DNA of 6,442 nucleotides from contig DAOVER010000096.1 in assembly GCA_030668875.1 (NCBI GenBank), positions 1-6,442 of the forward strand. Direction: 5' to 3'. Source of the stretch: Candidatus Heimdallarchaeota archaeon. GTDB lineage: Archaea > Asgardarchaeota > Heimdallarchaeia > Heimdallarchaeales > Heimdallarchaeaceae. A program made the position numbers and the translations under genes. Shown piece by piece: positions 1-6,241 of this stretch. Below the pieces are notes generated by a model, which searched no databases, was not told the DNA's origin, and saw nothing but the letters and a program-made list of their open reading frames with translations. How positions within the stretch are numbered: the stretch's first letter is position 1; each line of letters opens with the position of its first letter.

Positions 1-89
1 TTATAGAGATTTTTTGCTTGATGACAAATTCTACTCAGTGCTGGATGATACTCCACTTCTATACGCTCTGCACGCAATACCTTTGCCAT
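1..89 (-). CDS. tnpB: TnpB-like RNA-guided endonuclease, N-terminal 29 codons only (runs off window edge)
   Basis: Manual translation of the minus strand from ATG at 89-87 gives MAKVLRAERIEVEYHPALSRICHQAKNLY(N/K), open to position 1. The 'xxERI...L..lCH.aKNLYN' pattern is what I recognise as the N-terminus of IS200/IS605/IS607 TnpB proteins. It is not in the ORF track (short, edge-truncated). The RuvC domain is not visible. Confidence 0.75.
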   Translation of the reverse strand, partial: MAKVLRAERIEVEYHPALSRICHQAKNLY

Positions 90-91
90 CC

Positions 92-119
92 ATAGTTAAC
101 CCAGAGTTCACTATAAAAA
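92..119 (-). promoter_or_regulatory. TATA-like box for tnpB overlapped by an imperfect inverted repeat
   Basis: Minus strand TTTTTATA (119-112) ends 23 nt before the tnpB ATG, which fits a leaderless archaeal transcript. Inverted repeat ATAGTTAAC(92-100)-CCAGA-GTTCACTAT(106-114) has 8/9 pairs. Confidence 0.45.
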
Positions 120-150
120 CACCCGTACTATCACTAAAATGTTACTCAAT

Positions 151-369
151 TTACACCCTAATAAGACAAAAAGACAAAAGCATATTATAAATTGACCATA
201 CAATAAATACAATAGTAATCATACCAACATCGAGTTTGATTACAGAAAAGTAAAAAGTAAAAATCATAAAGGTAAAACCTTGATAAGCAACTTGATCTGC
301 TATTACACCTGCCCCATATGCAAGATTTCTACCTAGAGGTACTTCAAGTTCCATAAATACTTTTTCCAT
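151..369 (-). pseudogene. Truncated MFS transporter, GPH (glycoside-pentoside-hexuronide:cation symporter)-like; N-terminal 62 aa only
   Basis: 'VPLGRNLAYGAGVIADQVAYQGFTFMIFTFY...ITIVFIVWSIYN' matches the TM1-TM2 start of MelB/GPH-type carriers. The expected continuation (A-x-N-D-P...G..SD...GRR) is replaced by MLLSFCLIRV-stop. An MFS carrier should be about 400-470 aa. Confidence 0.75.
163..180. repeat. Short tandem direct repeat (AAGACAAA)x2 + AG
   Basis: AAGACAAA at 163-170 and 171-178, immediately next to the inferred insertion junction. Confidence 0.6.
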
Positions 370-2892: not shown

Positions 2893-3723
2893 TCATCTTA
2901 ATTTTAACTCACTAATCTTCAAACCAAGATTCTGTAAACTATCTAGTACACTTGAAATCAGTTGTAATTGAGCATGCAAAGCTATTGGATGTTTAACGTT
3001 GATTAAAACTTGTCCAAATGTGTCAATGGATGGGAAAACCAGATTCATAGAAGAACAAGAATTTTTCTCAAAGTCAACATCAACGTAGAATACACTTAGC
3101 TTTCGTGCAAGTAAATCCTGAAATGCTTCATTTTTTATTAGCTTTCTTAATGTAGGTATCTTTTGTAACCTTTCACTAGATTGTAAATGTAAAATATCTA
3201 TCTTCGGACTCAATTTCTTTCGCTCTTTCAACAAATTCTGGATCGTTTCTTCATCTTCTGAGCTTAAAAGAAGAAAAATAATATTTGTTTGCATATTATC
3301 GATTAGATTCTTTAATCCTGCATAAACAGCCCTTTTTCCTTCAAAATAGGAAAAAAGATCTTCAACATCCCTAGTACGTTGTTCTTCTTTGACTTGTTCA
3401 AAATATTTATTGGCAACTTTTAGTTTTGATTGAAATTCACTCTCTAGCGATTCAATAACAATTTCATAAGGAACTGCCATAAAAGTATCAGGAATACCTT
3501 CTTTCTCTTGTCTGGTAACAAAAGTTCGCTCAACCAATCTTTCTAGAAAGCCATAAACTTTAGGTTGAGGAACAGCTGCTAAACGAGCTATTGTTGATGC
3601 GTGAGTTGGTCCCATACCTACTAAAGATGTATATGTTTTAGCTTCACCAAGTGCTAAACCAAGACTCGAAAGTGCTCTGATTGCATCTTCTTTAGAAAAA
3701 GAAGGGGGAGATTTTGTGTCCAT
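2893..3723 (-). CDS. trmB: TrmB-family transcriptional regulator
   Basis: N-terminal winged HTH LSSLGLALGEAKTYTSLVGMGPTHASTIARLAAVPQPKVYGFLERLVERTFV is typical of TrmB, followed by a coiled helix and a roughly 150-aa C-terminal effector-domain-sized region. AGTGAT lies just upstream of the ATG; 9-nt gap after the permease stop. Confidence 0.85.
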   Translation of the reverse strand: MDTKSPPSFSKEDAIRALSSLGLALGEAKTYTSLVGMGPTHASTIARLAAVPQPKVYGFLERLVERTFVTRQEKEGIPDTFMAVPYEIVIESLESEFQSKLKVANKYFEQVKEEQRTRDVEDLFSYFEGKRAVYAGLKNLIDNMQTNIIFLLLSSEDEETIQNLLKERKKLSPKIDILHLQSSERLQKIPTLRKLIKNEAFQDLLARKLSVFYVDVDFEKNSCSSMNLVFPSIDTFGQVLINVKHPIALHAQLQLISSVLDSLQNLGLKISELKLR

Positions 3724-3732
3724 TTAATCACT

Positions 3733-4890
3733 TTAATCTCTCATTCTATTCCTTACAGTTAGAACTGCTAGCACAAAGAATAGTATACACATCCCAGCAA
3801 CAACAACAAAATCTACCCAGAGTTCTGCGAAACCCCATCCTTTAAGCATTATCCCTTCAAATAAGTTGATTCCATATGTCAATGGAACAAGGTAAGATAA
3901 TGGTTGTAACCAGACGGGTAAGCTAACAATTGGTACTAACATTCCTCCTAAAGCCATACTTGGAATAGCTGTTAGTGGAGCAAATTGTATTGCTTGCAAT
4001 TCATTCTGTGCAAAGTTTGCTAAGAAGACTGCCATGAATACATGAGCTATACCAAATAGAGTAGCAGCGAATATAAGCAAGAAGACATTTCCTTGAACTC
4101 TAGCTCCAAATATGAATACTCCAAAGATTAAAACCAGTGTTATCATTAATAGGGCAATAAATAACAAACCTATAACATAGCCCAATAATCTCTCTGAAGA
4201 TCTTAATGGTGTTGCATAGAGACGATCTTCTGTCCCCTGTATTTTTTCTCTTGTAACGGTTATTACACCTACTATGACTAGAAGAAATATCAGAACAAAT
4301 GCAATAACAGCGGGAATACCAACATCTATGCCTGTAAACTCTGCTCCCTCATGTGCTAGTATTTGCACAACATTTATTCCTGTTTCCCCCATGGCTTCAT
4401 CCAGGGCGTCATGAATCGCTCCTAGTATGCTAGCGCGCACCTGGGGTTTTGTTGCATCAACATATATGAAAAGACCACCAGAAATATCATCTCCCATGAA
4501 CATTCGGATAATGTTTTCAGAGAAATTTTCTGGTATAAGAACCGCAGCATAGAATCTGCCACGTTCAACTAAATCAATGCCTTCAGTATAATCACCATCA
4601 GTTATATCGACGCTATTGTCTGCCTGAAGAGCTTCTGAAAGATTTAAGCCAAAGTTTATGCTCATATATTCCACATCCTGATTATCAAGAATAATTGGAA
4701 CATTATTCACTTCTCCACTGAATGCTAAACCAAATATTAGCATAATAGCAATAGGAACTACAATTAGTAAACCTAAAGTTCTTCTATCTCTTCGGAACTG
4801 ATTCATGGTTCTAGATGCAATTGCCATAGTTCTTCTGAATGAAAAATTCAGGTTTTTAGGAAGTATTTCATTCTTATCTTTTTTACTCAT
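3733..4890 (-). CDS. ABC-2 type exporter permease (one N-terminal TM, extracytoplasmic domain, five C-terminal TMs)
   Basis: 'RTMNQFRRDRRTLGLLIVVPIAIMLIFGLAF', 'SITREK..GT.DRL..TPL' and 'QPLSYLVPLTYGI' are ABC-2 permease patterns. ATG 4890 (MSKKDK) is preferred over the track's GTG 4908 because it has GGAGAG upstream and overlaps the ATPase stop by 8 nt. Confidence 0.88.
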   Translation of the reverse strand: MSKKDKNEILPKNLNFSFRRTMAIASRTMNQFRRDRRTLGLLIVVPIAIMLIFGLAFSGEVNNVPIILDNQDVEYMSINFGLNLSEALQADNSVDITDGDYTEGIDLVERGRFYAAVLIPENFSENIIRMFMGDDISGGLFIYVDATKPQVRASILGAIHDALDEAMGETGINVVQILAHEGAEFTGIDVGIPAVIAFVLIFLLVIVGVITVTREKIQGTEDRLYATPLRSSERLLGYVIGLLFIALLMITLVLIFGVFIFGARVQGNVFLLIFAATLFGIAHVFMAVFLANFAQNELQAIQFAPLTAIPSMALGGMLVPIVSLPVWLQPLSYLVPLTYGINLFEGIMLKGWGFAELWVDFVVVAGMCILFFVLAVLTVRNRMRD

Positions 4891-5638
4891 CGATAATCTC
4901 TCCTTCACTTAATTTTATGAAAATCTCCTCTATAGTGGAAGCATTGTGTTCTTTCTTCAACTCCATAGGAGTTCCTTCTGCAATCAATTTTCCAGCTCTC
5001 ATCAAACCAATCCTATCTGCTCTTTCAGCTTCATCCATAACGTGCGAGGTAATTACGAGAGTAATACCTTCGTCTTTAAGTGATCTAAAATATTCCCAGA
5101 AAAAGGTTCTAAGAACAGGATCTACGCCAACAGTGGCTTCATCAAAAAACACTATTCTAGGAGAATGTATCAAAGCACAAGCTATACTAGCTCTTCTTTT
5201 CATTCCACCAGATAGGTTCTTAACCAAAACTTTTCTTTTCTCTTCCAAACGCAGAATTTTAAGTAATTCATCATATCTTGGAGAAAATTCAGCTTTGGTC
5301 ATCCCGTATAATTGAGAGAAAAAGCGAACATTTTCTTCGAGACTTAAATCATGATAAATAGAATAATCTTGAGGAGCCATTCCAATATGATTTGAAATCA
5401 AGCGTCTTTTTTCCGGAATATCATACCCAAGCACTTTAATGCTTCCTGAAGTTGGGAATAATGCCCCACTTATCATGTTTAATGAAGTTGTTTTTCCACT
5501 ACCATTTGCACCAATAAGTGCATAGATCTCACTCTTCCTTATTTTCAGATTTAAACCATCTACTGCTTTTACTTTCCCAGTTTTGTATATTTTTACCAAA
5601 TCTGTTGTTTCTATGACATACTCACTCTGAGTAGCCAA
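4883..5638 (-). CDS. ABC transporter ATP-binding subunit (exporter type)
   Basis: Walker A GANGSGKT, signature LSGGMKRR, Walker B IVFFDE, D-loop GVDP and H-loop SH. TTG start at 5638 is preceded by SD AGGTGAT (5648-5642). Confidence 0.93.
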   Translation of the reverse strand: MATQSEYVIETTDLVKIYKTGKVKAVDGLNLKIRKSEIYALIGANGSGKTTSLNMISGALFPTSGSIKVLGYDIPEKRRLISNHIGMAPQDYSIYHDLSLEENVRFFSQLYGMTKAEFSPRYDELLKILRLEEKRKVLVKNLSGGMKRRASIACALIHSPRIVFFDEATVGVDPVLRTFFWEYFRSLKDEGITLVITSHVMDEAERADRIGLMRAGKLIAEGTPMELKKEHNASTIEEIFIKLSEGEIIDE

Positions 5639-5794: not shown

Positions 5795-6241
5795 ATGGAA
5801 TTCAATGAGAATACTAAAGAAAGTTCACAGAATAAATTGCAGGTATCACCGAATATCTTCAAAATTATTTCACTCATAGTTATTGGTATGACAGGTTTCT
5901 TATCTGGATTTGAACCATTTGGAGGAATTTTGCTCTTGCTAATTGATGCTGTGTACTCGCAGCTCATACAGATTATTAGTATTGTTGGTTACATATGTGC
6001 AACTTGCGCATTTATAACAATAGTAATTACAGTGATTTTCAAGGAAAATAGTTGGGTTTTTACAATATTATCTTTTATCACAGCAATTCTCGGTTCTCTT
6101 CAATTCTCCATATTTGCTGTTTCTCCCTTTGGAGAATATTCATTTACTCATTTCCAATATGTTATCCCATTTTTCACTAGCATTCTTTCAATATTATTTG
6201 TCTATTTGCATATAATAATAACAAAAAGAAGGAAGAAATAA
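5795..6241 (+). CDS. Hypothetical integral membrane protein (about 4 TM helices)
   Basis: 148-aa ORF with a polar N-terminus, four long hydrophobic stretches and a basic C-terminal tail (TKRRKK), consistent with positive-inside topology. Confidence 0.72.
   Translation: MEFNENTKESSQNKLQVSPNIFKIISLIVIGMTGFLSGFEPFGGILLLLIDAVYSQLIQIISIVGYICATCAFITIVITVIFKENSWVFTILSFITAILGSLQFSIFAVSPFGEYSFTHFQYVIPFFTSILSILFVYLHIIITKRRKK

Follow-up and report, generated by a model that had tools for sequence, protein, structure and literature searches.

The stretch of DNA analysed here, referred to as the window, is the entire 6,442-bp contig C14 of a Heimdall (Asgard) archaeon whose genome (G000) comprises 3.23 Mb in 99 contigs and is 92% complete; base 1 of the window is base 1 of the contig. 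At its left edge, on the minus strand, lie the left end of a repeated element and the start of the tnpB gene of that element (1..186, with a 3-nt ambiguity to 183). Adjoining it on the same strand is a 61-codon 5' fragment of a transporter gene of the MFS_2/GPH type (187..369, ending ...IVWSIYN), recognised by comparison with its orthologues. The minus strand also encodes a small predicted membrane protein without a Pfam match (434-874), a thiamine-pyrophosphate enzyme of 610 aa that resembles acetolactate synthase (886-2718), a TrmB-family regulator (2893-3723) and an ABC-2 permease with its ATPase (3733-4908 and 4883-5638), which overlap by 26 nt. A further small predicted membrane protein without a Pfam match is encoded on the plus strand (5795-6241).

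The gene at the edge reads leftwards on the minus strand, a point on which an earlier note on this DNA had been silent. Translation of window positions 89..1 gives exactly MAKVLRAERIEVEYHPALSRICHQAKNLY, that is 29 codons beginning with the ATG at 89..87 in a frame that stays open to base 1, and the missed open reading frame that the earlier note had claimed at 1-89 is therefore real; recurrence of window positions 1-192 throughout the genome argues that it is not a chance frame. An extra ATG at 93..91, four bases upstream of the tnpB ATG, is out of frame. As 29 residues are too short for a profile score of their own, the fragment was assigned through its identity to residues 1-29 of P0002, the closest full-length paralogue (419 aa, encoded on C19), with which it shares 28 of 29 residues. 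The full-length paralogues of the fragment span 415-419 codons and begin with the same residues. P0002 passes the cut-offs of the profiles NF040570 guided_TnpB (143.2 bits, cut-off 100), PF01385 OrfB_IS605 (46.9 bits, cut-off 30.5; 3.9e-12) and PF07282 Cas12f1-like_TNB (43.4 bits, cut-off 26.3; 4e-11), which upholds the earlier assignment of the fragment as a TnpB start. Public near-identical proteins are titled [quoted passage not shown].

Window positions 1-192 recur at 11 other places in the genome with 88-98% nucleotide identity and at about 10 more with 71-78%, and many of these recurrences sit at contig ends. With the complete copy on C46 as query, the repeat measures about 1.43 kb, and many contigs start or stop inside it; the assembly breaks at the contig edge because the element is repeated many times in the genome. 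The genome holds 39 matches to guided_TnpB and 31 to P0002, and we put the copy number of the element in this archaeon at about 25-30. The same tnpB family is present in 20 of the 23 sister genomes of the genus, with up to 25 matches each. The public sequencing runs listed with this stretch are four marine-sediment DNA runs from one study, with no RNA run among them. In their contigs, the summed Logan contig depth is 730-1980 on window positions 1-150 versus 12.7-42 on the unique flank, a ratio of about 40-60, and the flanks of other copies branch off at window positions 186-194. Among the contigs of these four runs none bridges an empty site and none leads from the flank through the element; such contigs drop rare variants and are uninformative on polymorphism. 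The genome also holds damaged copies: C94:17815-18196 is a remnant in which similarity covers the left end and some 290 nt of the gene and then ceases, either through decay or through internal deletion, and the copies on C31 and C92 contain stops or frameshifts. The 29 codons at the edge of the window are the true tnpB start of one copy of this multicopy element, and the copy is an ordinary member of a known, unusual TnpB class.

The left boundary of the element is placed by the end of repeat similarity near position 192, by the loose ends at 186-194, by the jump in depth and by the reconstructed empty site described below. Inside the boundary, 22 nt upstream of the ATG, lies the TATA-like box TTTTTATA (112..119, minus strand). 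The earlier note had attributed such a box to the open reading frame, and it is found at 119..112 and kept across the copies of the family, with at most one or two changes in nearly all of 27 aligned copies from the own and sister genomes, even where these are only about 65-75% identical. With a spacing of 22 nt from TATA box to ATG, transcription would start at or next to the ATG; we infer that TTTTTATA acts as an archaeal promoter, from which tnpB would be transcribed with no leader or almost none. Closer to the boundary, a motif scan identified the subterminal block TTTTGTCTTTTTGTCTTATTAG (158..179, minus strand; 22 nt), which contains two direct TTTGTCTT units; the right end carries its inverted counterpart, the block ATTTGTCTTCTTGTCTTATTAG. 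The left and right blocks co-vary between subfamilies, which are of a TTGTCT type or a TTGTCAT type. Pairing of the two ends within one RNA was considered and rejected, given that the left repeat block lies upstream of the conserved TATA box.

Directly 5' of the left end stands the motif TTAT (187..190, minus strand), a candidate TAM. It occupies the aligned position in 24 of the 27 copies, compared with 0.93% of genome sites, and the flanks diverge directly upstream of a conserved TTAT(R)A. On the right, the copies terminate in ...CATCAT at 65-80 nt downstream of the stop codon; beyond this point the flanks diverge. No target duplication is present in five complete copies. A duplication of TA, AT or AAT was entertained for the window copy, in which the three bases AAT occur at both junctions, and was discarded, as this is not repeated in the other complete copies. 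In about 34 right-end flanks from the own genome and from L021-L031, the two bases after ...CATCAT are mostly R-A. The first bases of the element itself after TTAT are R-A as well, and both partners have AT-RA in common, which hints at either a short homology core at the crossover or a target preference for TTAT^RA.

Which gene did the window copy enter? The called open reading frame at 151..369 (minus strand, 72 aa) is a chimera of 61 transporter codons and 11 codons from the left end of the element, with its stop inside the element. A second contig, C72, holds the complementary parts: C72:1-429 contains tnpB codons 277-419, 94% identical to P0002 and free of stops, followed by a complete right end, behind which the transporter continues (AFNDPILGSLSDK...; AFNDPILGSLSDKTKTKKFGGGRRRPWM... 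from C72:494). Joining ...WSIYN of C14 to AFNDPILG... of C72 restores the transporter exactly, and seven orthologues in sister genomes read WS(I/V)YNAFNDPI(L/I)GG without interruption. The intact orthologues, one of which matches PF13347 MFS_2 at 3.3e-48, are 465-489 aa long and have the same TPP-enzyme gene as a neighbour. From the two transporter halves and the orthologues it follows that C14 and C72 flank one and the same copy, of which about 740 bp of the middle (codons ~30-276) collapsed in the assembly. The window copy is inserted at codon 61/62 of the MFS_2/GPH transporter gene, and the insertion is absent at the orthologous sites in the sister genomes. The reconstructed site before insertion reads TGGTCAATTTAT^AATGCATTTAATGATCC; the element went in 3' of TTAT with zero bases gained or lost, and the 3-nt ambiguity of the junction arises because both sides read AAT.

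TnpB genes are among the commonest in prokaryotes. A structural model predicted with AF2 from an alignment of 108 sequences (mean pLDDT 92.2, pTM 0.88) has the TnpB/Cas12f fold: Foldseek searches with it place AsCas12f (8j12, 2.9e-16) on top, together with ISDra2 TnpB (8h1j, 6.2e-16, TMt 0.70) and 8iaz (1.2e-14), and ISFba1 TnpB is among the best matches. The active site is arranged differently from the canonical one. Across 105 full-length representatives, one per 50%-identity cluster, Asp186 is invariant (105/105) and Asp376 nearly so (104/105), whereas the canonical position of the RuvC-II Glu is taken by Gly288 in all 105; a shifted glutamate, Glu335, is present in 103 of them. The RuvC D-E-D triad to which the earlier note had pointed is thus found in its two aspartates and not in its glutamate, in place of which Glu335 occurs. 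The CxxC zinc finger that it had named alongside the triad is absent from the family: none of the 105 representatives has CxxC pairs, and at most a single Cys is seen, at position 341 in 58 of 105. The region instead reads YTSKSSFLDNE ... FRSAQGH. A canonical TnpB paralogue coexists in the same genome (C94:41593-42831, plus strand; 413 aa), with VLENL in RuvC-II and a full CxxC...CxxC finger. In the alignment, VLENL ... YTSQTCSHCG ... FSCIYCG ... NADHNA of the same-genome canonical paralogue stands against VIIGYN ... IPEQYTSKSSFLDNE ... FRSAQGHLINADVNAA of the family, IIGYN falling on VLENL.

Similar rearrangements have been described. Altae-Tran et al. 2023 (PMC10691335) reported TnpB clades that have Gly instead of the RuvC-II Glu and whose site is completed by an alternative Glu from a loop; there, this rearranged class is treated as active and zinc fingers are noted to be lost in some large TnpB branches. 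In Yoon et al. 2023 (bioRxiv 10.1101/2023.08.09.552727), the shifted Glu precedes the zinc finger by six residues, and the spacing from Glu335 to position 341 in our family agrees with this published six-residue shift. Based on its conservation and on the published models of the class, Glu335 is predicted to be the relocated catalytic glutamate beside Asp186 and Asp376, and by its residue pattern the family is of the 'rearranged RuvC-II' TnpB class. With the rearranged RIIr clades of Altae-Tran and the shifted-Glu clade of Yoon, which lacks DPG, it has in common the Gly for Glu, the Glu six residues before the finger position, NADxN in RuvC-III, a length of about 420 aa, a mobile multicopy gene and a guide-RNA region, predicted in our family, no more than 250 bp from the right end. 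It differs in having lost the four zinc-finger cysteines, as the largest Glu-to-Gly clade keeps a C4 finger (PMC10691335). Fanzors and pro-Fanzors are set apart by an added D-P-G motif (10.1101/2023.08.09.552727). In our family, in which the shifted Glu is present, RuvC-I reads I-D-L-G, with leucine at position 187 in 77 and proline in 2 of the 105 representatives; with D-L-G rather than D-P-G the family is not pro-Fanzor. Among seven intact paralogues of the own genome, pairwise dN/dS is 0.07-0.10 at dS values of 0.5 to >2, from which it follows that selection maintains the protein in old, diverged lineages. A relative that is 40% identical, P0126 (541 aa), has an N-terminal MazE/AbrB-type antitoxin domain fused to TnpB, a combination reminiscent of the RHH/MazE-TnpB association in Altae-Tran et al. 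2023 (PMC10691335).

The 3' end of tnpB carries a second layer of conservation. Over the last ~170 nt before the right end, nucleotide conservation inside the 3' end of the gene is far above that expected from codon constraint. The stem GCCUUGC/GCAAGGU, which lies within the coding sequence, shows compensatory changes, with CG, AU, UA, GC and GU pairs at three positions. The hairpin GGAUAC/GUAUCC shows a change from A-U to G-C. A further hairpin across the stop codon is kept with many different stem sequences, a terminal hairpin is kept with at least six, and the conserved structure stops at the element boundary. Searched against Rfam at E<=1, the window and three full copies gave no omegaRNA or IS605-orfB match and one chance miRNA hit. 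The right-end structure fits a predicted omegaRNA scaffold that would end in CAUCAU and be followed by a guide derived from the flank.

Is the window copy still an intact element with a working nuclease? A decayed remnant, consisting of a lone left end and a tnpB that is truncated or broken, would be in keeping with the decayed copies of this genome (C94:17815-18196, C31 and C92) and with the fact that codons ~30-276 of the window copy are unassembled. However, both visible ends are intact and in frame, as C14 supplies codons 1-29 and C72:1-429 supplies codons 277-419 without a stop, together with the whole right end and the remainder of the transporter gene, and we consider decay of this copy unlikely. 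The earlier note had also raised a domesticated or inactivated variant and had proposed that a mutated triad would point to a TldR-like regulator. Loss of the canonical RuvC-II Glu (Gly288) and of the zinc-finger cysteines is what a domesticated, nuclease-dead TnpB acting as a guide-RNA-directed repressor might display, yet Asp186, Glu335 and Asp376 are kept in 98-100% of the 105 diverse relatives, and the Glu-to-Gly class is treated as active in the literature (PMC10691335). As these predicted catalytic residues are conserved, a TldR-like dead regulator is not supported, and the altered triad instead marks the rearranged class that is treated as active. Nor does the setting resemble domestication: the gene lies within a mobile multicopy element with defined ends rather than at a fixed locus beside a regulated gene, the insertion is specific to this species and missing from the orthologous sister-genome sites, and dN/dS is low. 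A repressor role of this kind is extremely improbable in our view, and we retain the reading of a probably intact copy of a mobile element.

What moves such an element? The earlier note had inferred an archaeal tnpB that is not preceded by a tnpA and, as one option, a non-autonomous IS1341-like element. The tnpB-only, non-autonomous character holds. IS607 ancestry, rather than IS1341/IS605, is indicated by the ends and by the closest relative that has a transposase. ISfinder practice assigns elements with tnpB alone to the IS1341 group by convention. A classical IS200/IS605 derivative of that group, moved by a Y1 HUH TnpA through single-strand 'peel-and-paste' with cleavage at TTAT on the left and TCAT on the right, would also account for several features: insertion is strictly 3' of one tetranucleotide, with TTAT in 24 of the 27 copies, the target is not duplicated, and the right end, which closes with the similar TCAT, has a conserved hairpin near its terminus that shows compensatory changes. 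Insertion 3' of a tetra- or pentanucleotide without duplication is indeed what we see, but the other hallmarks of IS200/IS605 are missing. Searches for the Y1 transposase domain PF01797 found none in the own genome, which is 92% complete, and none in the other 23 genomes of the genus, while positive controls matched, and the Y1 genes of four genomes from sister genera are paired with a different, canonical TnpB. Instead of same-strand hairpins at both ends there is a hairpin at the right end only, and the left end bears the inverted counterpart of the right-end repeats. Moreover, the nearest transposase-bearing relative has a serine recombinase. Y1-driven movement therefore seems quite unlikely to us. 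Cas1 (PF01867), as in a casposon-like mobiliser, has no match in the genome.

The comparison with IS607 is closer. IS607 ends consist of inverted subterminal blocks with short direct repeats, cause no duplication and usually have a GG terminus (PMC6188088). With the IS607 family (IS607, IS1535, ISC1926) our element shares the lack of target duplication, the imperfect inverted blocks of short direct repeats a few bases inside each end, the same dinucleotide at both junctions and a tnpB that fills the element to its right end. The tnpA(Ser)-tnpB layout is seen in P0125, which at 45% identity is among the closest relatives outside the Heimdall cluster and lies directly behind a gene for a 195-aa Resolvase-domain protein; of the other relatives outside the cluster, one is preceded by a small HTH_17 gene and two stand alone. 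On the other side, the IS607 elements have their own tnpA and a GG junction (PMC6188088), compared with AT in TTAT/TCAT here, and the choice of target is far more specific in our element. No cognate transposase was found, and serine recombinases (Resolvase), which are present elsewhere, never adjoin a tnpB of the family at any copy in 30 genomes, either directly upstream or otherwise. The own IS607-like tnpA genes of the genome (C48, C15 and C87) were considered as the mobiliser and rejected, as their ends are unrelated and GC-rich and their partner is a different, 638-aa TnpB-like protein. At C48:36202-38757 and C87:1-2286, a tnpA for a MerR-HTH/Resolvase protein of 200-219 aa is followed by a TnpB-like open reading frame, of 638 aa on C48 and split on C87; C15:30734-31390 has an IS607-like tnpA and a GC-rich right end and lacks a tnpB. 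Judging from its ends and its relatives, the element is best read as a transposase-less IS607-type derivative that would be mobilised in trans.

Taking these lines together, we assign a probability of roughly 0.9 to the overall reading that the window copy is a tnpB-only element of ~1.43 kb with a rearranged RuvC-II TnpB, which split a transporter gene and would move in trans in the IS607 manner. Such an element would be built of a ~103-nt left end with two direct TTTGTCTT repeats and a TATA-box promoter, a tnpB of 415-419 codons, and a right end reaching 65-80 nt past the stop, with the last ~170 nt encoding an omegaRNA scaffold that overlaps the 3' end of the open reading frame. The omegaRNA would measure ~170-190 nt, starting near AAAAGCGAUCC and ending 16-20 nt past CAUCAU, with its guide transcribed from the flanking DNA just past CATCAT. 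The TnpB of this family is in all likelihood a working RNA-guided DNA endonuclease, for which TTAT followed by a guide match would be the recognition site. It would cut empty donor sites, and the element would then be restored through homologous repair. Movement to new sites would require a transposase in trans, possibly an IS607-type serine recombinase that exchanges at the AT dinucleotide of the target (TT-AT) and the right end (TC-AT). ISDra2 TnpB (8h1j, 8exa) offers a partial parallel: the overall fold, a TAM 5' of the left end (here a candidate) and a (here predicted) omegaRNA that overlaps the 3' end of tnpB and extends into the right flank are shared, and a homing-nuclease role may be expected. 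In contrast, ISDra2 has a canonical D-E-D triad and a zinc finger, a Y1 tnpA, hairpin ends and the TAM TTGAT, compared with TTAT here.

In conclusion, the locus is a routine call, a real but ordinary member of the known shifted-Glu TnpB class in a tnpB-only insertion sequence. Its transporter gene, intact in sister genomes and split here, provides a natural before and after of an insertion, and the join of C14 and C72 together with the orthologous empty sites fixes the target as TTAT^RA, with exact ends and no duplication. This compact 419-aa lineage, with its relocated Glu and without a zinc finger, is under strong purifying selection and is thus a candidate for genome editing, as a small nuclease whose TAM would be short and A/T-rich. 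Because searches of 24 genomes of the genus returned no Y1 transposase, the locus also sharpens the old question of how tnpB-only elements spread. It appears rather improbable that the genus maintains and spreads such an element, with as many as ~30 copies in a genome, in the absence of any cognate transposase. If true, an unrecognised enzyme would act on the TTTGTCTT/AAGACAAA end repeats and exchange at TTAT/TCAT or, alternatively, a zinc-finger-less, shifted-Glu TnpB and its omegaRNA alone would, beyond homing into emptied sites, drive copying into new TTAT sites.
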